A DNA stretch of 32,428 nt from Candidatus Aenigmatarchaeota archaeon (GTDB lineage Archaea; Aenigmatarchaeota; Aenigmatarchaeia; GW2011-AR5; JAHLMP01), in the NCBI GenBank assembly GCA_021158665.1, contig JAGGUE010000057.1, positions 1 to 32,428 on the forward strand, written 5' to 3'. The first letter of the stretch is position 1; every line of letters begins with the position of its first letter. The position numbers and the translations under genes were made by a program. Positions 2,615 through 20,957 of the stretch are shown in pieces. The notes beneath the pieces are model-generated. The model did not search any database. It worked only from the letters and a program-made list of their open reading frames with translations, and had not been told where the DNA came from.

Positions 2615-2995
2615 TCACTTCTCGCCGAGCAAAACGGCATTTATAATTCCGTGCTGCCCCGGGCGGGACGTCACCCTGGCTTTGCCCAATTCCGTCTCTA
2701 TGATACACCCCTTTGTAATTACGTTTTGCCTTGTTAAATGCGGGTTTGCATAATTTTCGATGACGGACAAAATCTTAGCTCTTTTGGTCTCTTTGCCAAC
2801 GGTTATATTTGCAAAATTTTCCGATAATAGAGAAATTTTAACATTACCGCCGGTTACTCGTATCTTTCTGATTTTCCTTTTTTCAATTTTAGTTGGGACG
2901 AAATCCCTGCCCCTTTCTCTCTTTTTCTTTTTTGCGTTTTTTTTCAGCCGACCTCCAGTCAATTTTCTTTTTGATTTTCTTTGCCATAATGTCAT
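2615..2995 (-). CDS. rps8e: 30S ribosomal protein S8e
   Basis: 126 aa. The N-terminus MTLWQRKSKRKLTGGR and the basic KKKKRERG segment are typical of S8e. Confidence 0.9.
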   Translation of the reverse strand: MTLWQRKSKRKLTGGRLKKNAKKKKRERGRDFVPTKIEKRKIRKIRVTGGNVKISLLSENFANITVGKETKRAKILSVIENYANPHLTRQNVITKGCIIETELGKARVTSRPGQHGIINAVLLGEK

Positions 2996-3103
2996 AAATC
3001 ATCAACCGATTAAAGATAAATTATTTTAAATCATTGAATATCTAATGATTTAAATACTTATCTATTTAAAATTTATTACAAATTTAAGTTAAGGTGTTTT
3101 GAT

Positions 3104-3319
3104 TTGGAAAGACCTATCGATGTATTGAATAGCGCAAAAGGAAAGCGAGTGTTGATAAGATTAAAGAATGGCATAGAAATTTCAGGAATATTGCAAGCGA
3201 TGGACCTACACTTAAACATGTGGTTAAATGAAGCCGAACAGTTAACGAACAGCGAAAAAACGAAGCTCGGCACGGTTTTGGTGAGGGGAGATAACATTCT
3301 TTTCGTATCTCCGGAGTAG
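3104..3319 (+). CDS. Sm-like (LSm/SmAP) RNA-binding protein
   Basis: 71 aa with Sm1/Sm2 motifs (KRVLIRLKNGIEISGILQAMDLHLNMWL ... VLVRGDNILFVSP). It has a TTG start and lies upstream of L37e, the conserved archaeal LSm-L37e pairing. Confidence 0.85.
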   Translation: MERPIDVLNSAKGKRVLIRLKNGIEISGILQAMDLHLNMWLNEAEQLTNSEKTKLGTVLVRGDNILFVSPE

Positions 3320-3494
3320 CTCACTTGCCTTTTATTTCATAGTTTCAAATACCAGTTAAAGCGAAGATAAATAGACAGTTGAAGTTCGAAAAACTTTAAC
3401 TTAATGTGCGTTAAGTTAATTTTCAAAACTTTCTGATTTGTCTCGGTAAAGATAAATATCTCATTTGTTTTAATGAGCCGCGAGGTAATTTTAT

Positions 3495-3680
3495 ATGACA
3501 AAAGGAACGCCGTCTTTTGGCAAGCATAACAAAATAATTCATATAAGATGCAGGCGCTGTGGCAGGCATTCATATAACATAAAAACCAGTATCTGCTCCG
3601 CTTGCGGATTTGGCAAATCAAAAAAACTGAAAAACGAAGCGTGGAAATGGAAAAGTGTTAACAGAAACAGAAAATACTGA
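3495..3680 (+). CDS. rpl37e: 50S ribosomal protein L37e
   Basis: 61 aa: [29 protein letters not shown], the zinc-ribbon signature of L37e. A GAGGT Shine-Dalgarno sequence lies 8 nt upstream. Confidence 0.9.
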
Positions 3681-3800
3681 TTCTCATTTAAGATTTTAAT
3701 TTATTTAAGTAAGGTATATAAATAACATGGGCCTGTAGCTCAGTCTGGTAGAGCGTTCGAATTTATGGCGATGCTCTTAACCGAACGGTCGCGGGTTCGA

Positions 3801-4308
3801 AATACCTTTCTCTCTTAAAAAGAGAGAAAGACTATCGGAAAGAGAGAAATTCGGGCGAAAAATCAAAAGATTTTTCGCATATATTATTGAGAGAAAGACC
3901 ATTGGAAAATCGCAGGAGGAGTTCAACAAAAGAAGATAAAATAATTGAACTCCGACGAGAAGAGAGCAGGAGGTTTTTGCTAAATAGAAAATAAAATAAC
4001 AGAAACCGACGAGAAGAGAGCAGGAAGAGTTCGCCAATTACAAATAATATAAAAGTGAACTCCGACGAGAATCGCAGGAGGTTTTCGCCAATTTATAAAT
4101 AATATAAAAGCCGAAAACCGACGAGAACGGAGAAAAAATTCGGGCGAAAAATCAAAAGATTTTTCGCACATAATTAAGAAAAAGACCAAAGGAAAAAAAT
4201 ATCTTGTTATAATTAATAAAAAAATAATATATGCGAATGAAATGAGCCAAAGTCTTTCTTTTTCCGCAAGTCTTTTTCTTTCTCTGAAAGAAAAAGGTTG
4301 AACGAGAA
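3801..4308 (+). other. giant modular T-loop intron/insert of tRNA-Lys (family shared with tRNA-Val)
   Basis: The 5' 47 nt (ATACCTTTCTCTCTTAAAAAGAGAGAAAGACTATCGGAAAGAGAGAA) are identical to the start of the insert in tRNA-Val. About 110 nt at the 3' end are near-identical. The interior contains 2 A-modules and 4 B-modules. Terminal hairpins lie at 3805-3829 (11 bp) and 4272-4296 (10 bp). Confidence 0.7.
3905..4126 (+). repeat. tandem array of four 54-56-nt hairpin modules (B-modules) inside the tRNA-Lys insert
   Basis: CCGACGAGAA recurs at 3951, 4005, 4061 and 4117, and GCAGGAG/GCAGGAA at 3911, 3965, 4019 and 4073. Each unit is GCAGGA + 8-9-bp stem + AT-rich 18-20-nt loop + stem + CCGACGAGAA. 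The stem sequences differ between units but stay complementary. Confidence 0.8.
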
Positions 4309-4349
4309 TCCCGTCGGGCCCACTTATTTTCTAAACCAGAGGGACTTGC

Positions 4350-5258
4350 ATGTTAATGGATTCTGAAAATCTCAGAGAGCTTATTAATATTGTGAGCAAA
4401 CGGTCTAAACATAAATCAAAGATATTATTGCAGATACCCGAAGGGCTAAAATGCAATGTCATTGAAATAATAGATAACCTGAAAAGGTTGGGGCATGACG
4501 TGGTTTTGTCAGCCGAGCCATGCTACGGAGCTTGTGATATAAGGGACTATGAAGCAAAAAAAATGGGTTGCGATCTTATTCTTCATCTCGGGCATAGGAA
4601 ATTCTATAAGAAATTTAAGACAATTGTTCCAGTAATCTACTTCCCAATAAAATTGAGTGTAAAATATAATCCGGTTGAACTTAAAAAAATTTCATACAAA
4701 AAAATAGGCCTTATATCCACGGTCCATCATGTTGAAACGTTAAAAGACATTTCGAGGGATTTGAAAAATATTGGCAAGAGCTCTGTAATCGGCGGTGAGA
4801 TACTTGGCTGCTACACAAAAAACGCGTCTAAAATAGAAAAAAACGTCGACTGTTTTCTATTTGTTGGTAGCGGGGAGTTCCATGCGTCTGGACTTGTAAC
4901 GGAAAAGCCCGTTTATATTTTTGATTTGGAAAAAAATAAAGTTAGGTTAATAAATAAAATGAAAAGATTGAAAATATTGCATGCCAATTTGGCAAAATTA
5001 GATGATGCAAAAAAAATTGGAATCTTGATTTCAACAAAAAAAGGTCAATTCTTTGATTTAAATAGAATTGAAAAATTAAAAAATAAGTTGAAAAAAATGA
5101 ATAAAAAAGCATACGTCTTAGTTATGGACAACATAACAAATGAAAAACTAACCGGGCTAAAGATTGACTATTTTATAAATACGGCATGCCCGAGAATAGT
5201 TGAAGACGGGTTTGACAAGCCAGTTATAAACGCGCGCGACCTTTTCGGGAGTATATAG
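4350..5258 (+). CDS. dph2: diphthamide synthesis enzyme Dph2 (2-(3-amino-3-carboxypropyl)histidine synthase)
   Basis: 302 aa. The LQIPEGLK motif, conserved Cys residues (EPCYGACD, TACPR) and the length are typical of archaeal Dph2. Confidence 0.8.
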   Translation: MLMDSENLRELINIVSKRSKHKSKILLQIPEGLKCNVIEIIDNLKRLGHDVVLSAEPCYGACDIRDYEAKKMGCDLILHLGHRKFYKKFKTIVPVIYFPIKLSVKYNPVELKKISYKKIGLISTVHHVETLKDISRDLKNIGKSSVIGGEILGCYTKNASKIEKNVDCFLFVGSGEFHASGLVTEKPVYIFDLEKNKVRLINKMKRLKILHANLAKLDDAKKIGILISTKKGQFFDLNRIEKLKNKLKKMNKKAYVLVMDNITNEKLTGLKIDYFINTACPRIVEDGFDKPVINARDLFGSI

Positions 5259-5378
5259 CTGTCTTGACATATATGAATAAGGTCCATGGACATTAGCGTT
5301 ATTTATGGCGACCGACCCGTTAATTTTGCAATGCCTATATACAATTCACAAAAAATAAAAAGAAAAAAAAGAAAAAAA

Positions 5379-5612
5379 TTACTCTTGTTTTTCTTCCGAG
5401 CCCCCTTCTGTTGCTTCTTCTGTCTTCTCTTCTTCTGGCTGTTCCTCCTTTTTCTCTTCCGTTACCTCTTCCTTTGGTTGCTCTTCTGTTTCTTCTTTCT
5501 TCTCTTCTTCTGGCTGTTCCTCTCCTGACTGTTCTTCTGACACTTCCTCTTGTTTCTCTTCTTCCTTAGGCTGTTCTTCTATTTTATTTTCTTCGTCAGT
5601 CATTTTTTTCAC
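5379..5612 (-). CDS. small, extremely acidic low-complexity protein (E/K/Q/P repeats)
   Basis: 77 aa with repeated EEQPEEEK / EEQPKEE units. It has an ATG start preceded by AGGTGA 7 nt upstream. I recognise no family. Confidence 0.45.
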   Translation of the reverse strand: MKKMTDEENKIEEQPKEEEKQEEVSEEQSGEEQPEEEKKEETEEQPKEEVTEEKKEEQPEEEKTEEATEGGSEEKQE

Positions 5613-5624
5613 CTTTAATGGATG

Positions 5625-5704
5625 AACAAACTGGCATTTGCCGTATTCACAACTTCTTGTTAAAGGCGATGAAAAGGGAAAGAAGTTGTGAATTACCAGT
5701 TGTT
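5625..5704. repeat. 80-nt imperfect hairpin containing a perfect 14-bp inverted repeat
   Basis: ATTCACAACTTCTT (5645-5658) pairs with AAGAAGTTGTGAAT (5680-5693) around a 21-nt loop. An outer stem AACAAACTGG (5625-5634) / CCAGTTGTT (5696-5704) extends it. It lies between the start of the acidic-protein gene and tRNA-Gly. Confidence 0.6.
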
Positions 5705-5804
5705 ATAAGAATAATACTTAGAGTAAAACTTTAAATTATTTTATTTTTCGTATTATTAACAACATGAAAAATAAAAAAATAATTAATAAACATATATTTT
5801 AGAC

Positions 5805-5875
5805 GCATCAATGATCTAACGGTATGATATCAGCTTCCCAAGCTGATTATGCGGGTTCGACTCCCGCTTGATGCA
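5805..5875 (+). tRNA. tRNA-Gly(CCC), no intron
   Basis: Acceptor GCATCAA/TTGATGC+A, anticodon arm TCAGC TTCCCAA GCTGA, T-arm GCGGG TTCGACT CCCGC. Length 71 nt. Confidence 0.9.
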
Positions 5876-5876
5876 T
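5865..5876 (+). repeat. direct repeat, left copy (CGCTTGATGCAT; 3' end of tRNA-Gly)
   Basis: The exact 12-mer recurs at 7255-7266. Degenerate partial copies are at 5887-5900 (GTTCGATGCATGGG) and 5921-5932. Confidence 0.7.
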
Positions 5877-6008
5877 AGGTCAGAAAGTTCGATGCATGGG
5901 CATGGTTAATAAGCCATCCGGTGCATGGTGCTTTTATGTCTGATATACACAATTACAGATTAAAACTTGAACGAGGGATGAAATTAGTAAAAAAAGGGTT
6001 CTAACATC

Positions 6009-6212
6009 TCAAAGAAAAACGGGCAAGACGAGCGCGTATTTCGGTTTTCTTGTTCTCAGATACAGATAGCCCATAACCCAGATTGTTGTCAGAATAGCAA
6101 TAATAGGATAGCCAACCTCTGGATTTGCGAGGCAGAAACGCATGAGCGGGTTGCCCTCTATCTCCGGACCCTTTCTTTCTCTCCCTTCTTGACTGCTGGT
6201 CACTTTAAGCAT
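6009..6212 (-). CDS. hypothetical small membrane protein
   Basis: 67-aa ORF with an ATG start and one C-terminal TM segment. It overlaps the end of the NYN ORF by 13 nt. I recognise no homology. Confidence 0.2.
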   Translation of the reverse strand: MLKVTSSQEGRERKGPEIEGNPLMRFCLANPEVGYPIIAILTTIWVMGYLYLRTRKPKYALVLPVFL

Positions 6213-6855
6213 TCTCTTATCAATAAATTTGCACTTAAAACAAAAAACTTTACTCTTTGCCTGAGTTCATACGCATAGCCTCTGGTTAAAAAGGCACTAA
6301 ATACTTTCTTTCCATTCTTTTTTATCAAATCTAATACGGGAATAAAATCTGCGTCACCGGAAATTAAAATACAGCAATCGCATTTATTCTGAACTACACT
6401 TAAATTAAGCATATCTATTGCTATCATTACATCTATACCTTTCTCTCTCTTTTTGATATTACCTATACAATCAAAACACATACTCTCAACTATTGGTTTG
6501 CATTTATCGCACAAATCTAAAGTAGATAATATTTCTTTCTTTTCCTGCAAAACCTCATGAGTAGAACTTCTTTGTAGTTTTCTTGTCTTAACATCAAATT
6601 TTGGCAATCTCTCAATTTCATTCAAGAATTTCATATGAGAATGATACATTCCTTTTCCATCTTCAATGCTTGGAACAGAGTTGTAATATATAGATTTTTT
6701 ATGAACACAATTAAAATGGAAGCATACTCACTTAATTTATAGAAATCTATATAACTTGGTTTTATTTTCATAAGTTTTACATTGTGATAAAAGTTATTTC
6801 CATCTATAAACACAAATGCCTTTGTTGGCCTAACTTCAGCTGGCATATTATTCAC
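6200..6855 (-). pseudogene. NYN/LabA-like (DUF88) domain gene interrupted by a single-base frameshift
   Basis: ORF 6631-6855 encodes the NYN N-terminus (AFVFIDGNNFYHN...KLSEYAS). The rest continues in another frame (..HFNCVHKKSIYYNSVPSIEDGKGMYHSH.. EKGIDVMIAIDML .. ILISGDADFIPVLDLIKKNGKKV), which opens just after a TGA near 6722. The frame change maps to about 6710-6725. Confidence 0.7.
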
Positions 6856-7254
6856 TTATTAATTAATAGAAGTAGAAACAATAAAAATCAAAATTAATTA
6901 TAAGAAAACCCAGCATTCCTCTGCCGAGCAGAGTCATACTGGGGACTTAATAATTTGTTATTGGCAGAGAAACTATTTAAAAATTTTTATTCATTTACTT
7001 TAATATATATTTTAAATTCTATTTCTAAAAACGGTTACAGTTGCCAGAAATCAGACGCAGACCTTAGCAAAAGAAAATCTGGCAAAGGTTTCGGAAATTG
7101 CAAGAGAGAGCATGATACGGGGACTAACCCTGTTAAAAGAAATTAACAATGAGAGCGATAAAAGACTGAAAGAAAAAATGGAAAAAGCCAAAAAAGAAAT
7201 AAAAAGTTTAAGAAAATAGTATAAATAGATGCATTGCATTTTCTCTACGTTGCA

Positions 7255-7266
7255 CGCTTGATGCAT
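7255..7266 (+). repeat. direct repeat, right copy (CGCTTGATGCAT)
   Basis: Exact 12-nt match to 5865-5876. A further 2 of the 3 nt immediately upstream also match (cAcgctt versus cCcgctt). Confidence 0.7.
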
Positions 7267-7299
7267 TTTAATCACAAAATTGATTGCAATAAAATAATT

Positions 7300-8592
7300 C
7301 TATAAAACCTTTTTGTGATCAACCGCAACTTCTCCGAGTTCGTAAATTAAGAACCCGATGATAACGAGAGCGACGCCATACGCCAAAACCTCAATTTCAA
7401 TATTGGCAAGCATAAACAAACATGTTATTATTCCCAACGCGGGCAAAACGGGCATCTTGCCGATGGATAATGGCGTTGTGAAGCCTCTTTTTTTATCGGG
7501 CTTTTTGTACCTCATCCATATCACGGCCGCGTTGACGAAAATAAATGTCATGAAAATGGCAAAGTTCGTGAGATTTGCAACTATTTTTATATTTCCAAAA
7601 AATAAGACAAAAAACATTCCAAAAAGCGTTGTCGTTACTATCGCGACCCATGGCGTGTGCGTCTTTCTTGAAATGGATAAGAACACCCGCGGAAGTATTC
7701 TAAATTCGGCAATGCCGTATATCAGTCTCGATGCCCCGAGCATTACAACCAAAACCGTGTTGAATGTTGAAAATAATGCTATAACGGACAAGACGAGAAA
7801 CGCCCTGTCTCCAAATAAATGAGAAGCAACGAATGCGAGAGGTGCGGACGAAGATGATAAACCATTCCATCCCAAGACAGAAACCGCTGAAATCGCAACT
7901 AACACATATATTATTGTTGTGATGGCTATAGACAACAAAACCGCTTTCGGTATAATCTTAGATGGATTTTTCGTTTCTTCGGCAAGCCTTGTGATGGATT
8001 CAAATCCTATATATGCAAAAAATACCAGAGACGATGCCCTGAAAATTCCAGATAAACCGCTTGCCAGCTCGAGGTAATTCACTGAGCCGATATGAGGCAA
8101 TCCGATAAAAATTATTATTGCCAGCCCGATCAACTCTATGCACGTGCATAAAATCGTTAAGAATGCCGACTCCTTAATTCCAGCGATCAAAATAACGCCG
8201 CACAGCAGAATTGCGGTCAAAGCTGTTAAAATTATCGGAGTGCCGAACAGAGACGAAAAATAATTGGCAAACCCTATTGATACGGCCGATGAACTGATAA
8301 TTGAACTGATTATTATCAGCCATCCAACAATCCACGCCAATTTCTTTCCCAGCGTCTTGTCGATGTAAACATATTCGGCTCCGGCTCTTGGAAAAACAGA
8401 AGAAAGCTCGGCATAGGATAATCCGGTGAATGCGGCAACGATGGCTGCGAGTATAAAAGAGAGCCAGACGGCATTGCCGGCCATACCGGCTGCCTCGCCT
8501 ATAAGCACATATATACCGGCGCCAACTATTATGCCGACGCCAATGAGCGTTATCTGCCATAAACTTAGCTCTCTTTTTAGTTTTGGTTTCAT
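7300..8592 (-). CDS. amino acid permease (APC superfamily)
   Basis: 430 aa with about 12 TM segments. The N-terminal LSLWQITLIGVGIIVGAGIYVLIGEAA motif is typical of APC transporters. Confidence 0.85.
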   Translation of the reverse strand: MKPKLKRELSLWQITLIGVGIIVGAGIYVLIGEAAGMAGNAVWLSFILAAIVAAFTGLSYAELSSVFPRAGAEYVYIDKTLGKKLAWIVGWLIIISSIISSSAVSIGFANYFSSLFGTPIILTALTAILLCGVILIAGIKESAFLTILCTCIELIGLAIIIFIGLPHIGSVNYLELASGLSGIFRASSLVFFAYIGFESITRLAEETKNPSKIIPKAVLLSIAITTIIYVLVAISAVSVLGWNGLSSSSAPLAFVASHLFGDRAFLVLSVIALFSTFNTVLVVMLGASRLIYGIAEFRILPRVFLSISRKTHTPWVAIVTTTLFGMFFVLFFGNIKIVANLTNFAIFMTFIFVNAAVIWMRYKKPDKKRGFTTPLSIGKMPVLPALGIITCLFMLANIEIEVLAYGVALVIIGFLIYELGEVAVDHKKVL

Positions 8593-8611
8593 ACCAAAAA
8601 CCCGTGATAAA

Positions 8612-9101
8612 TGGGTCCGGGGAGATTTCCGTTCAACCTTTTTCTTTCAGAGAAAGAAAAAGACTCTGGTTCATTTCATTCGCATATATTTATTTATATT
8701 GTAATTATAACAAGACTTTTTTTCCTTTGGTCTTTTTCTTACCGTTCTCGTTGGAGTTCACTTTTTATATTATTTATAATTGGTGAACTCTTCCTGCGAT
8801 TCCGATAGTCTTTTTCTTTTCTTTTTAATATATGCGAAACGAAGTTTCGCCCGAATTTCTCTCTTTCCGATAGTCTTTCTCTCAATAATATATGCGAAAA
8901 ATCTTTTGATTTTTCGCCCAATTTTTTTCTTTTTCCTTTGGTCTTTCTTTTTAATACTTTTTAATAATATATGCGAAACGAAGTTTCGCCTGAACTTCTC
9001 TCTTTCCGATAGTCTTTCTCTCTTTTTAAGAGAGAAAGGTATTTCGAACTCCCGACCTTTGCCACGTCAAGGCAACGTCATAGCCACTAGACCACGGACC
9101 C
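8612..9101 (-). tRNA. tRNA-Val(GAC) with an approximately 417-nt insertion/intron in the T-loop (about 59/60)
   Basis: Minus-strand reading: acceptor GGGTCCG/CGGACCC+A, anticodon arm TTGCC TTGACGT GGCAA, variable AGGTC. The T-stem is GGGAG (9053-9049) / CTCCC (8624-8620). The T-loop is TTCGAA (9048-9043) plus T (8625). Confidence 0.8.
8626..9042 (-). other. giant modular T-loop intron/insert of tRNA-Val (same family as in tRNA-Lys)
   Basis: It has the same 47-nt 5' end and the same 3' segment as the tRNA-Lys insert. The interior has 3 A-modules (hairpins 8834-8850, 8894-8917, 8973-8989) and 1 B-module (8744-8803). The 5' terminal hairpin is at 9014-9038. Confidence 0.7.
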
Positions 9102-9291
9102 AATCGGCCAAATGCACAACGGTGAACGACGAAGCGAATCTTGGCACATAACCATTTGGCGCACCGCTCCGTTAATCTATTATCCTTTAATTTTAATTAT
9201 AGACGCCAGCAAATTTAAAAATCTTCTAATCCGGTTTTTCAAAAATCGCATCGCAGTTGAAAATTGCCGACCTTCTCAATGTCCGCAATAC

Positions 9292-10389
9292 TTATATAAT
9301 TTTCACCGCTTCCAGTATTTTTTCGGCTTCCGCTCTCGTAATGTTTATTTCGTTTAAGACCGTATATCTTTCCCTGACTCGTTTTGCGTTTACCAGGGCA
9401 TCTATTAAAATATCTTCTTTTATTCCTATCTCTTTTGAATTCGTCGGCAACCCGAGCCTTATCATCATGTCCCTGACTTTTTGCCATACATCGCCACGCA
9501 AATCGCGAACCGGCGTTGGTCCGTTCCGTTTCTCGCCTTCAGTAGTCTTGCACGCCTTTCGTTGACCTTGCAAATAAGTCATGACAATAGTCCCAAGCGC
9601 GCACTGCTCGCCGTGCAGGGCATTTGCGCCGAGCGAGTCGAGTGCGTGGGAAAAGTTGTGTTCGCTTCCGGAGCATGGCCTGGAAGAGCCGTATATGTTC
9701 ATTGCAAAACCGGAGCATATCAAACTCCAGAGCAAAATTTCCAGGCCGTGATAATTCTTTTCTCTTATGTCATCTATATGGTTTATCACTCCCCTGCTTG
9801 ACAACAACGCCAACTCCGCCATTAATGTATGATACTTTTCCTTTCCCTTCTCTGCCGCGAGTTTCCAGTCCTCCACCGCCGAGATATTGGAAATCAGATC
9901 TCCGGCTCCGGACGCTATCAGTCTGTAAGGCGCCTTTTTTATCGTGTCCAAATCGCCTATTATTGCTATCGGCTCTGTTGCATCGACAGAAGTCCTGAAC
10001 CCGTTTGAAGTTATGCTCGCGCGCGAAGAGACGACGCCGTCATGGGACAACGCCGTCGGAAATGCTATCCACGGCTTTTTCGCCAGAAACGACGAATACT
10101 TTGCCACGTCAATGCTCCTCCCGCCGCCGAGCCCGATCGTGAAATCAAATTGTTTTATTTTTTCCGACAATCGTTCCAGATATTTTTTTTCTATTGATTC
10201 CGGCTTTATGATTTCCACGTCAAATGAGTTTGAAAGAATATCTTTGATTTTAAAACCGATCACCCTTCCGACGTTTTCATTGCAAATCATCGCAATTTTT
10301 TTGCCGAGTCTCATTTCTTTTAATAAGGCTTCTATCTCACCCTCCACCGACCTCTCGATCAGAATTTTATATGGGAAGTTTATTATCAT
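9292..10389 (-). CDS. egsA: glycerol-1-phosphate dehydrogenase [NAD(P)+]
   Basis: 365 aa with the iron-ADH/DHQS-like fold motifs GLGGGRSIDVAKY, PTALSHDG and SGSEHNFSHALD, which match G1PDH. There is an apparent insertion of about 20 aa (RKACKTTEGEKRNGPTPVRDLR) before the C-terminal helices. Confidence 0.75.
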   Translation of the reverse strand: MIINFPYKILIERSVEGEIEALLKEMRLGKKIAMICNENVGRVIGFKIKDILSNSFDVEIIKPESIEKKYLERLSEKIKQFDFTIGLGGGRSIDVAKYSSFLAKKPWIAFPTALSHDGVVSSRASITSNGFRTSVDATEPIAIIGDLDTIKKAPYRLIASGAGDLISNISAVEDWKLAAEKGKEKYHTLMAELALLSSRGVINHIDDIREKNYHGLEILLWSLICSGFAMNIYGSSRPCSGSEHNFSHALDSLGANALHGEQCALGTIVMTYLQGQRKACKTTEGEKRNGPTPVRDLRGDVWQKVRDMMIRLGLPTNSKEIGIKEDILIDALVNAKRVRERYTVLNEINITRAEAEKILEAVKII

Positions 10390-15043: not shown

Positions 15044-16276
15044 TCACGGTTGGTTCCATTCTATTTCATAATATTTATTTCTCGAGCCCGGCAGGTCTAT
15101 TCGCTTTGCAACATAGTATGTTACCGATGTTTCGCGGTCAGAAATTCCGATCATCAATCTCAGCCCGAGTTCGTCGGCCTTGCTCAATGCAGATGCCAGC
15201 TCCTTTCCACCGAGCTTTTCATCCTCTGTAAACGAGATTATGGCAAATTTCGGGTTGCTTTCGCCCGGCTTTTCAAGCCCGATTTTCTTTCTATGGTAAC
15301 CGATAAAATCTATGAGTTTTCCCTCTTTGATGTAATCGGACTCTTTCATGCCGGGGATTGCCATGATAAATGTCTTGCGGACGGAATGCGCAACTCGAAC
15401 AACCCGCGCCCACTCGCTCATAATCATGCTCACGTTTTTTGGAAAAACATGGATCACGTGCTTGGAGTGAATCCACTTCGACTTTTCACGATTTGGAGAG
15501 GCGCCCGGAAAATACAGCCTGAAATGGGTGCCGAACTTAAAACCCGTCTTTATGATATAACCCCTTGCCCTCCAGTCCTCATAAACATCGAACAATGCAT
15601 TAACATTTTTTTGATATTCTTTTATCAAGTCCATGAGCTCTTCAAAGCCCATGATTTTTTCATTCTTATTATTTTTAACGGCAAATCCGTTTTTTGCCAA
15701 TAAAAGCGTTTCCATGAAGTCGAATTTAAGGATATTGTCGCGGTGTTGTTGTTTGTATACGCCCAACTGGCCGAGCCAAAATCTTTCAAACAATTGTTTT
15801 GTTCTCTCATCGCATCTCGCTATCGAAACCATATCTTCTGGCAAATAGAGCAGCTCGGTATCCAATGGCGGCAACGCAAACTTCCCGGAAGGATATTTAA
15901 CAACCGGGCTCCTGCCGAAATTTTTAAGCTCCATTCTTTCTGGAAATTGCGGAATAAGTCCCCTGTCCCGCCAGTCGCGATATAAGTTGTATCTCGCAAA
16001 TATTCTCGACTCGCCTGAAAAAATATTTATTAAATCAGAAAAAACAATATTTTTGCCCTGTTGCGCGCACGGGCACTTTCTTATGTTGACGAGATACAGC
16101 GCCTCGATCGGGCTCAATTTTAGTTTTCCGTTTTCTCTTTCTCCATAAAATCCCTGCTCAAGAGCGCTTATGCTGTTTGAGTCGTTTGCCACGACAACGC
16201 CGTTCTCCAAAAACAAAGATGGCTTCGGTTTTCGAATAGCGGGCTGTTGTATTTGTTTCTCTTTTTTTCCTTTCAT
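15044..16276 (-). CDS. endA: tRNA-splicing endonuclease EndA, long multi-unit form
   Basis: 410 aa, versus roughly 180 aa for a single archaeal EndA unit. The catalytic unit is in the middle (GYIIKTGFKFGTHFRLY ... HSKHVIHV ... SVRKTFIMA), which supplies the Tyr/His/Lys triad. An N-terminal EndA-like unit and an extra C-terminal unit (FAIISFTEDE...LRLMIGISDRETSVTYYVAKRI) flank it. Confidence 0.8.
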   Translation of the reverse strand: MKGKKEKQIQQPAIRKPKPSLFLENGVVVANDSNSISALEQGFYGERENGKLKLSPIEALYLVNIRKCPCAQQGKNIVFSDLINIFSGESRIFARYNLYRDWRDRGLIPQFPERMELKNFGRSPVVKYPSGKFALPPLDTELLYLPEDMVSIARCDERTKQLFERFWLGQLGVYKQQHRDNILKFDFMETLLLAKNGFAVKNNKNEKIMGFEELMDLIKEYQKNVNALFDVYEDWRARGYIIKTGFKFGTHFRLYFPGASPNREKSKWIHSKHVIHVFPKNVSMIMSEWARVVRVAHSVRKTFIMAIPGMKESDYIKEGKLIDFIGYHRKKIGLEKPGESNPKFAIISFTEDEKLGGKELASALSKADELGLRLMIGISDRETSVTYYVAKRIDLPGSRNKYYEIEWNQP

Positions 16277-19863: not shown

Positions 19864-19947
19864 GGGCCGGTAGTCGAACGGCAAGACGCTGCCTTCGCAT
19901 TTTTCCGAAACAGGCAGAGATTCCGAGTTCGATTCTCGGCCGGTCCA
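19864..19947 (+). tRNA. tRNA-Ala(CGC) with a canonical 12-nt intron at 37/38 (19900-19911)
   Basis: The acceptor GGGCCGG/CCGGTCC+A gives the G3:U70 Ala identity pair. Anticodon arm CTGCC TTCGCA[tttttccgaaac]A GGCAG, T-arm CCGAG TTCGATT CTCGG. Confidence 0.9.
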
Positions 19948-20100: not shown

Positions 20101-20868
20101 ATGAAAATCCTCATCGCTTCAAAACAAAACAAAAAATGCCTGAACTATGCAGACGGGCTTTCAAAGAAACTGAGAAAACATGAAATCGTGTTTGATATCC
20201 AGACGGGAAAAGCACTGAGCAAAACCTCGGAAGAAATAGAAAGGTTTGACGGCGATATTGCCATAACGATCGGGGGTGACGGAACATTTCTTAGAGTTGC
20301 GCATCAAACGCACGTGCCGATCCTGCCAATAAGGGCGGAAGGGGTCGGGTATTTATGTTCAACAAGCTTTGATGAATTTGTTAAAAAAAATATAAAAAAA
20401 TTTGACGATTACGAGATTACAAAAGTAAGCACGCTTTCTATAAAAAACGGCATCAAGGCGCCGAGAGCGATAAACGAAATCTTCATAGCAAACGACAGAA
20501 AAATCACGGACATAAGATTTACCATTGACGAAACAGAGTTTGGATTCATTGGCGATGGGATAATCTTTTCAACGCCGCTTGGCTCAACCGGTCATGCCAT
20601 GTCGCTCGGCGGGCCATTCATTGGCTGGGATGCGGATGTTATCTGCATCGTTCCCGTGGCGCCGTTCAACTCAAAAATAAGGCCGATGATAGTCCCGAGC
20701 GACAAAAAGATTGCCGTCAAGGTAAGTTCCGGGGTTGTTATTGTGGACGGTTTCTGGAAAAAGCCGTTTGCCGGCAGAAACTTCGTAATTGAGAAAGGAG
20801 AGCCGGTAAAAATTATAACACTTGAGGACGATTGCTACAAAAAATTCAGGGAAAAGTTTTTGGATTGA
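20101..20868 (+). CDS. nadK: NAD kinase
   Basis: 255 aa with the GGDGTFLR motif, the NEIFI motif and GDGIIFSTPLGSTGHAMSLGGP. Confidence 0.9.
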   Translation: MKILIASKQNKKCLNYADGLSKKLRKHEIVFDIQTGKALSKTSEEIERFDGDIAITIGGDGTFLRVAHQTHVPILPIRAEGVGYLCSTSFDEFVKKNIKKFDDYEITKVSTLSIKNGIKAPRAINEIFIANDRKITDIRFTIDETEFGFIGDGIIFSTPLGSTGHAMSLGGPFIGWDADVICIVPVAPFNSKIRPMIVPSDKKIAVKVSSGVVIVDGFWKKPFAGRNFVIEKGEPVKIITLEDDCYKKFREKFLD

Positions 20869-20957
20869 TGGGCGAGGGGAGATTTGAACTCCCGACCTCT
20901 CGGTATCTGATATTTAAATTATCAGCCGAGCGCTCCACCAGGCTAAGCTACCCGCCC
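20869..20957 (-). tRNA. tRNA-Ile(GAU) with a canonical 15-nt intron at 37/38 (20905-20919)
   Basis: Minus-strand reading: acceptor GGGCGGG/CTCGCCC+A, anticodon arm CTCGG CTGATA[atttaaatatcagat]A CCGAG, T-arm GGGAG TTCAAAT CTCCC. Its 3' end abuts the nadK stop. Confidence 0.9.

Follow-up and report, generated by a model that had tools for sequence, protein, structure and literature searches.

Long modular introns, probably protein-spliced, share a single T-loop position across at least ten tRNA genes of an archaeal lineage

In the 32,428-nt stretch of DNA analysed here (contig JAGGUE010000057.1 of assembly GCA_021158665.1; hereafter the window), the tRNA-Val(GAC) gene (9101..8612, minus strand) is interrupted in its T loop by a 417-nt insert. 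We consider it likely that this insert is a genuine protein-spliced archaeal tRNA intron at position 59/60 and one of at least ten paralogues, and the best reading of the family is that these introns have greatly expanded and recently spread. The gene anatomy, the pairing at the splice junctions, the type of splicing enzyme, the short introns of relatives, and the number and identity of the interrupted genes argue for functional, endonuclease-spliced introns. Near-identity in unrelated tRNAs, a single loop sequence and the existence of empty sites argue for spread between genes. Coordinates are collected in Table 1.

The interrupted tRNA-Val gene was called neither by ARAGORN nor by Rfam at the gathering threshold, and the Rfam tRNA model aligned to its 5' part (9030-9094, 27.5 bits). 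When the exons were joined without 8626-9042, ARAGORN returned tRNA-Val(gac) with all four stems intact, as a preliminary description of this DNA, made from the letters alone, had proposed. That description had also pointed to a homologous insert at the same T-loop position of tRNA-Lys, which proved to be 507 nt long and to lie between nucleotides 59 and 60. Joining the Lys exons without the inserts gave tRNA-Lys(ctt). This gene contains a second, 13-nt intron in the anticodon stem/loop (~3760-3773, plus strand), and two splicing events are therefore needed. Comparison of the Val and Lys inserts confirmed the likeness described earlier: the 5' 47 nt are identical, and the 3' ~110 nt are near-identical save for an 18-nt indel and a few substitutions. 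The two inserts have common blocks of 39-77 nt with 88-100% identity, and a 19-nt junction word, TTCGAAATACCTTTCTCTC, occurs twice in the window versus zero occurrences expected from 100 shuffles.

When metagenomes were scanned for a degenerate 21-nt pattern taken from the intron's 3' end, 18 matches were obtained. Ten of them were chance matches in coding DNA and eight lie directly before U60 of a tRNA gene, seven of these on three long contigs of one assembly (Ga0190306). Removal of the insert restored tRNA-Val(UAC), tRNA-Ser(GCU), tRNA-Gly(GCC), tRNA-Ala(GGC), tRNA-Arg(UCG) and tRNA-Gly(UCC). Together with Val(GAC), Lys(CUU), an exon 1 of Lys(UUU) and one exon 2 without an isotype, at least ten genes are occupied. 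The eight complete, non-chimeric introns are 167 to 507 nt long and all lie at 59/60. Highly similar intron sequences are found in tRNAs of unrelated identity, with modules common to ten genes, and the exons of the interrupted genes show no decay and form perfect cloverleaves. The earlier suggestion of a T-loop-specific element that had moved between tRNAs agrees with this search, in which the eight real copies of the 3' terminus all lie at 59/60 and none elsewhere. Its counter-hypothesis, a generic miniature inverted-repeat transposable element (MITE) outside tRNA genes with target-site duplications, was not seen: clusters of the internal motifs occur only within T-loop introns in ~95 kb of the lineage. 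In the 454 kb examined, ~95 kb of which come from this lineage, none of the occupied genes had an uninterrupted counterpart. Among 185,579 species-representative genomes, the 3'-end pattern gave only eight chance matches, in bacterial genomes, and the family, at least with this 3' end, is absent from these representatives.

Counted along the 7-nt loop, which is carried by a 5-bp stem, position 59/60 falls at the sixth nucleotide, and it is the structural counterpart in the T arm of the canonical 37/38 in the anticodon arm. Every copy ends in ...AACGRRAA/U (slash, splice site), in which CGRR, realised as CGAG, CGAA or CGGA, is the pairing partner of exon UUCG; Val has CGGA and Lys has CGAG opposite UUCG, as originally claimed. 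Minimum-free-energy folds of the T arm with the full intron gave the order T stem, AAU bulge, UUCG:CGRR helix, internal loop and paired ends in six of eight copies, and in those folds the intron ends pair beyond a small A-rich internal loop that holds the 5' cut. The Val fold constrained to this splice motif was isoenergetic with the free fold (-101.0 versus -101.1 kcal/mol).

A consensus fold of seven end-to-end mini-constructs consisted of the T stem, the bulge, the 4-bp helix, the internal loop and a 4-bp ACCU:AGGU helix, past which lies a junction with one local hairpin at each end. In this consensus structure 93% of cells are paired, compared with 50-68% when the partners were slid, and none of 500 shuffles did as well. 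All 28 cells of the UUCG:CGRR helix are paired, the sole variation being between A-U and G-U, which upholds the proposed selection on the junction helix, only A or G varying opposite U. This variation favours the tRNA-sense RNA, because the opposite strand would have C-A mismatches. The 5' hairpin is 100% paired, and in four of its positions both partners differ between the two end types. A 3-nt bulge separating the outer helix from the 4-bp central helix holds the predicted 3' splice site.

The T loop is UUCGAAU in all nine occupied genes with a known exon 1 and in one of the seven unoccupied tRNA genes of the same lineage (9/0 versus 1/6; Fisher p ~0.001, our calculation). No consistent target-site duplication was found beyond two A residues, which are accounted for by the symmetric bulge-helix-bulge, since it requires them. 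Empty sites, whose existence the preliminary description had left to be looked for, are present both within the lineage, in tRNA-Arg(GCG) on contig L020, and in a relative, in the tRNA-Lys of contig L042.

The presumed splicing enzyme, of the three-unit epsilon2 type, is encoded in the same window. This 410-amino-acid (aa) protein matched EndA of ARMAN-2 (Candidatus Micrarchaeum acidiphilum; PDB 4fz2) over residues 30-410 (phmmer E = 6e-107) and contains the Pfam domains tRNA_int_endo_N and tRNA_int_endo. In ARMAN-2, introns at 59/60 are cut by the epsilon2 endonuclease (Fujishima et al. 2011; PMC3239211), which acts on both strict and relaxed motifs, and the 59/60 intron of pre-tRNA-Cys is of the hBH type (PMC3239211). 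By analogy with the ARMAN-2 enzyme, the endonuclease of the window is presumed to be active on relaxed motifs. As of 2018, only Micrarchaeum and Mancarchaeum were listed as having the epsilon2 enzyme, and disrupted tRNA genes that had escaped detection were considered probably present in DPANN genomes (PMC5829648). We observed epsilon2 homologues of 376-442 aa commonly in metagenome-assembled genomes of Aenigmatarchaeota and Micrarchaeota.

The neighbouring genes in the window are archaeal housekeeping genes (eRF1, exosome subunits, SBDS, diphthamide synthesis), and the best named homologues of two window proteins are from Aenigmatarchaeota genomes, with at most 67% and 76% identity. Judged from these sequences, the host is an Aenigmatarchaeota-related DPANN archaeon. 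The closest endonuclease homologue (76% identity) is encoded on contig L042 near two tRNA genes. Of these, tRNA-Asp contains a 50-nt intron at 59/60 in addition to one of ~14 nt beside the anticodon. The other, tRNA-Lys(UUU), has an uninterrupted T arm and acceptor 3' strand, GCGGGUUCGAAUCCCGUCGGGCCCA, identical to the Lys(CUU) exons of the window, and thus represents an empty site. On contig L044, with a more distant homologue (70% identity), tRNA-Ser(GGA) contains a 21-nt intron, AUUUUAUAAAUUUUACGAAAA, at 59/60, and its junction words TTCGAA/A...ACGAAAA/T are the same as those of the giant family. Introns at 59/60 are therefore common in the clade, and the long modular form is so far found only in this lineage.

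The family has a sense strand that is 61% purine, and its members are mosaics in which two 5'-arm types and two 3'-arm types occur in mixed combinations. Other components are a hairpin followed by AUAUAUUA, a repeated word, AAGACNNNGGAA, and a 51-59-nt unit present in one to four copies. The unit comprises an 8-9-bp stem, an 18-26-nt AT-rich loop and the flanks GCAGGAGG and CGACGAGAA; its stems are of several sequence types with the pairing kept. The smallest copy, the 167-nt intron of tRNA-Gly(GCC), is hardly more than the two arms. The arms would be what matters in cis, leaving the interior free to expand, shrink and recombine. Folding z-scores were -5.7 for the sense strand and -7.4 for the antisense strand; both strands fold far better than shuffles, which indicates that the element is palindromic at the DNA level too. 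Folding energy was thus uninformative as a guide to the functional strand.

Several other identities for the interior were tried and rejected. Only spurious overlapping open reading frames (ORFs) were found, and the modules, 51-59 nt long, do not come in multiples of three. No group I or group II intron core was detected by the Rfam intron families in 3600-9300, at the gathering threshold or at E up to 10, and no known RNA family was significant in Rfam, an example being a chance CRISPR-DR54 match of 22.9 bits against a gathering score of 39. For a box C/D RNA, the C-box-like AUGAAAUGA and a conserved CUGA occur 38 nt apart in one 3'-arm type only; the other 3'-arm type is without the motif, and no internal C'/D' boxes were found. 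A virus or plasmid origin was not supported, as two scans of viral contigs gave only chance matches within phage genes, and blastn of the intron against plasmids and phages gave no match. Module hairpins (for example 3910-4125, plus strand, and 8745-8800, minus strand) each have the successive elements UCG, CAG and GA as the 5' flank and GA and CGA as the 3' flank. These flanks could form a kink-turn, with a 3-nt bulge and tandem G-A pairs, and so a candidate L7Ae binding site. The kink-turn reading fits about two thirds of the modules and competes with simpler pairing, and we keep it only as a lead.

The genes adjoining the two exons were looked up in other assemblies. Eight contigs of JGI, ENA and Logan assemblies, found by the gene adjoining exon 1, run from that gene through tRNA-Val exon 1 into the insert, and five other contigs (L046-L050), found by the permease adjoining exon 2, run from the insert through exon 2 into the permease. 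Both Val junctions are thus reproduced in independent assemblies from at least six datasets, which counters the possibility of a chimeric assembly raised in the preliminary description. No other contig covers the whole Val gene, short-read contigs ending or mis-joining within the insert. The three contigs in which exon 1 and exon 2 belong to different tRNAs are most likely assembly chimeras or breaks at a dispersed repeat, although some real recombination between copies may also lie behind them. Among contigs that are 99.1-99.8% identical to the window over 7-11 kb, the tRNA-Val intron differs in its end types and module sets.

Several observations weigh against a protein-spliced intron family of this kind. 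The strict hBHBh' form was not found, as the 5' site has no canonical 3-nt bulge, and the A-rich internal loop at this site varies from 2x2 to 4x4 between copies; the motif is therefore of the relaxed hBH kind, which matches the hBH and bulge-helix-loop forms reported for ARMAN-2 and Crenarchaeota. The compensatory changes in the 5' hairpin can all be traced to one event separating the two end types. Folding of the antisense strand is no worse than that of the sense strand, and hairpins alone are no proof of selection at the RNA level. T5-T8 runs, which could terminate archaeal transcription, occur 35-52 nt before exon 2 in every copy. The isotypes in contigs L009 and L011 could be called only after removal of a second small intron, and the genome has been seen only in parts, so that intact duplicates of the tRNA genes may exist elsewhere. 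Finally, we infer splicing itself and a single long precursor from the DNA, and the same goes for circularisation and mobility.

The T runs fit a different arrangement, in which the two halves would be adjacent split tRNA genes: a transcript of exon 1 and most of the insert would end at these runs, exon 2 would be transcribed from an AT-rich promoter-like box in the insert, and the two RNAs would pair by their arms and be joined in trans, as in Nanoarchaeum equitans. The two arms are indeed complementary, and exon 2 is preceded at 60-95 nt by TATA-like words (TTATAAATAAA, AATAATATATG), but such words are ubiquitous in a 40% GC genome and carry little weight. Moreover, the halves are adjacent and co-oriented in all copies, and a T5 run also lies in the 20 nt between tRNA-Val and the start codon of the permease, which leave no room for a separate promoter, so that this run must be read through. 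The 21- and 50-nt introns at 59/60 of the relatives can only splice in cis. Trans-splicing is therefore less likely than a cis-spliced intron, and we hold it to be improbable. It is scarcely credible that the interrupted genes are dead, as insertional pseudogenes, or that the inserts arose in assembly. The genes do escape standard tRNA finders, and contigs L005, L019 and L046 are chimeric across the element, but ten tRNA species would have to disappear at once, among them both Lys isoacceptors and two species each of Val and Gly. The undecayed exons with their perfect cloverleaves, the conserved junction helix, the recurrence of both junctions in at least six datasets and the lack of uninterrupted copies in the 454 kb examined all speak against such a loss.

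A further account accepts splicing and differs on how the family spread. A non-autonomous DNA transposon (a MITE, a palindrome-associated or an 'introner'-like element), with its transposase encoded elsewhere, might target the palindromic TTCGAA and persist since its sequences make the transcript a substrate of the splicing endonuclease. The ends of the introns do form imperfect inverted repeats, each also a local hairpin, but these are sub-terminal, with offsets of 2-3 nt (left) and 8-9 nt (right). Every copy has a two-base AA repeat at its flanks, yet nothing beyond AA is duplicated. The target is a fixed 6-bp palindrome, whereas CGRR keeps its pairing with UUCG through G-U and not through sequence identity. 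Rapid module turnover, mosaic copies and the strong folding of both strands would suit a transposon; however, no copy was found outside a tRNA T loop, either by the pattern scan or in the ~95 kb of the lineage, a Pfam scan of 20 window ORFs revealed no transposase, and the intron is without a match in the plasmid or phage collections. The relatives' 21- and 50-nt introns at the same position are too small for transposons. We therefore regard a transposon as rather unlikely.

For the protein-spliced intron family that we favour, we propose the following mechanism. In the precursor, the T stem, the 3-nt bulge (A-A/U60) and the 4-bp helix between U54-G57 and CGRR would form a defined half of a bulge-helix-bulge, and the 5' cut (A59/A) would fall in the small A-rich internal loop, closed by the pairing of the intron ends. 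The epsilon2-type endonuclease would cut both splice sites, after which RtcB would ligate the exons and probably close the intron into a circle. Conservation is confined to the two arms, the 5' one of ~45 nt and the 3' one of ~60 nt, and the interior would be a dispensable and fast-changing array of hairpins that expands, contracts and recombines between copies. The family would have moved among tRNA genes with a UUCGAAU T loop. One conceivable route is that the excised introns are stable base-paired circular RNAs of 167-507 nt that spread as RNA: by base pairing between the CGRR-AA end and the UUCGAA in the T loop of another tRNA, a bulge-helix-bulge would form in trans, and the host endonuclease and ligase would splice the intron in, with the spliced product finally copied to DNA. 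We think this route very unlikely; if true, it would be a case of a selfish, viroid-shaped RNA that uses the tRNA-splicing machinery for both exit and entry.

Among known systems, the ARMAN-2 introns are similar in their 59/60 position, relaxed hBH geometry and three-unit endonuclease type. They differ in being single introns in individual genes of a member of Micrarchaeota, whereas those described here are 167-507 nt long, modular, homologous across at least ten genes and found in an Aenigmatarchaeota-related host. Protein-spliced tRNA introns of archaea and eukaryotes are given as shorter than 100 nt in reviews (PMC4033280). Thermoproteales contain near-identical introns in tRNAs of different identity, attributed to recent gain by an unknown mechanism (work of 2010, summarised in PMC4090602 and PMC4033280). 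The likeness lies in similar introns across tRNA identities in hosts with broad-specificity endonucleases, and the difference in that those introns are short and occur at many positions, while the present ones are long, repeat-structured and confined to one position. Also different is the restriction here to one loop sequence (UUCGAAU) with polymorphism within the population.

Randau et al. in 2005 reportedly described split tRNAs of Nanoarchaeum equitans and Caldivirga that are encoded at separate loci with their own promoters, mostly with the break at 37/38 (see also PMC4033280). As in those tRNAs, complementary flanks here would bring the splice sites together for the splicing endonuclease; unlike them, the pieces lie 167-507 nt apart on one strand and are separated at 59/60. 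The intron of tRNA-Trp in Haloferax and other euryarchaea is ~100 nt long, lies at 37/38, is single-copy, contains a box C/D guide RNA and is often released as a circle. It too is rather long for an archaeal tRNA intron and holds a structured RNA, but it has recognisable C and D boxes, of which none are convincing here, where no Rfam family was matched either. With MITEs, palindrome-associated elements and 'introners' the family has in common that it is short, non-coding, multi-copy and hairpin-forming, with inverted-repeat-like ends and insertions tolerated through splicing. It differs from them in occupying one tRNA position, in having sub-terminal repeats and no clear target-site duplication, and in that no transposase was identified in the window ORFs.

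A full-text literature search found no description of long, repeated T-loop introns. The position, the motif and the enzyme are already known; the size, the modular build, the copy number, the single-site specificity and the population-level turnover are new. How introns enter new tRNA genes has been an open question since scattered similar introns were seen in Thermoproteales tRNAs. The present family makes this question approachable, as it is young, is tied to one site and one loop sequence, has empty sites and varies between strains that are ~99% identical; its youth is indicated by the 47 identical 5' nucleotides of the Val and Lys copies. The upper size accepted for protein-spliced tRNA introns, below 100 nt until now, is raised to ~500 nt, and only the two arms appear to be needed. 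Assuming ~40-46 tRNA genes in such a genome, about a quarter of them would escape ARAGORN and Rfam, and probably tRNAscan-SE as well. In short-read assemblies the repeats also cause breaks or chimeras, and both the hidden genes and the broken assemblies can yield false 'missing tRNA' calls in DPANN genomes.

Table 1. Features of the interrupted tRNA genes, the predicted splice motif, the endonuclease gene, the unoccupied T loops and the chimeric contigs (positions refer to the window unless a contig is named)
Feature	Position	Strand	Description
tRNA-Val(GAC) exon 1	9043..9101	minus	Nucleotides 1-59; acceptor, D arm, anticodon arm, T-stem 5' strand and T-loop UUCGAA; ends ...GGGAGUUCGAA
tRNA-Val probable intron	8626..9042	minus	417 nt; T-loop 59/60; non-coding; hairpin modules
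tRNA-Val(GAC) exon 2	8612..8625	minus	Nucleotides 60-73; UCUCCCCGGACCCA; junction also in L046-L050
Exon UUCG	9045..9048	minus	Nucleotides 54-57; 5' strand of central 4-bp helix
A58, A59 and first intron A after UUCG			Predicted 5' splice site
Intron CGGA and bulge A-A/U	8625..8631	minus	CGGA 8631-8628, then bulge (8627, 8626 / 8625); predicted 3' splice site by T stem
5' arm	9016..9040	minus	ACCU, then 9-bp local hairpin UUUCUCUCU/AGAGAGAAA (window form)
3' arm	8636..8660	minus	Local hairpin UUUUCUUUC/GAAAGAAAA, then AGGU
Unpaired UGAA	8632-8635	minus	Opposite predicted 5' splice site
tRNA-Lys(CUU)	3729..4322	plus	507-nt paralogous insert 3802-4308 at 59/60
tRNA-splicing endonuclease	15044..16276	minus	Three-unit epsilon2 type; 410 aa; presumed splicing enzyme
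Unoccupied tRNA-Gly(CCC)			T loop UUCGACU
Unoccupied tRNA-Ala(CGC)			T loop UUCGAUU
Unoccupied tRNA-Ile			T loop UUCAAAU
Unoccupied tRNA-Arg(CCG)			T loop UUCAAAU
Unoccupied tRNA-Met			T loop UUCAAAU
Unoccupied tRNA-Asp			T loop UUCAAAU
Unoccupied tRNA-Arg(GCG)	L020		T loop UUCGAAU; sole empty site with the occupied loop sequence among the seven
Chimeric contig L005	L005 7030-7290		Val(GAC) joined to Gly(UCC)
Chimeric contig L019	L019		Val(UAC) joined to exon 2 without identity
Chimeric contig L046	L046 1380-1868		Lys(UUU) joined to Val(GAC)

The genes downstream of both interrupted tRNA genes of the window begin close by on the same strand. The permease ORF starts 20 nt after tRNA-Val (8590-8612), and a diphthamide-synthesis ORF starts 27 nt after tRNA-Lys (4323-4352). 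The short spacing leaves no place for separate promoters and suggests that each ORF is co-transcribed with its tRNA or read from a promoter within the intron. A look-up of the dph2-like ORF adjoining tRNA-Lys gave no record. A synteny test using the glycerol-1-phosphate (G1P)-dehydrogenase-like gene found relatives (at most 67% identity) without tRNA-Val at that place, and the empty site in a relative was instead obtained through the neighbourhood of the endonuclease gene. Upstream of tRNA-Val, a GC-rich stretch of ~70 nt (9102-9175, minus strand) lies between an AT-rich region and the 5' end of the gene, with no unusual structure (z = 0.5). On contig L009, tRNA-Arg(CCG) (4625-4713, minus strand) begins 1 nt past the 3' end of the intron-bearing tRNA-Val(UAC).

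In the same population, tRNA-Asp(GUC) (L046 1140-1376) combines an intact T loop with an unrelated intron of 164 nt next to the anticodon, and long introns here are therefore not confined to the T-loop family. As on L042, this gene is paired in the window population with an adjacent tRNA-Lys(UUU), which here carries a giant T-loop intron. Small introns were also observed in the window: tRNA-Ala(CGC) (19864-19947, plus strand), which Rfam missed at the gathering threshold, contains one of ~12 nt, and tRNA-Ile(GAU) (20869-20957, minus strand) one of 15 nt. A 669-nt T-loop intron candidate in tRNA-Ile (20200-20957) was rejected as a false pairing, the gene being intact. On contig L044, a 1.2-kb, very AT-rich stretch (2873-4067) is without called genes. 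Between the diphthamide-synthesis gene and tRNA-Gly(CCC) of the window lies a CT-rich imperfect tandem repeat (5407-5556), made up of 75-nt units that are 61-75% alike.

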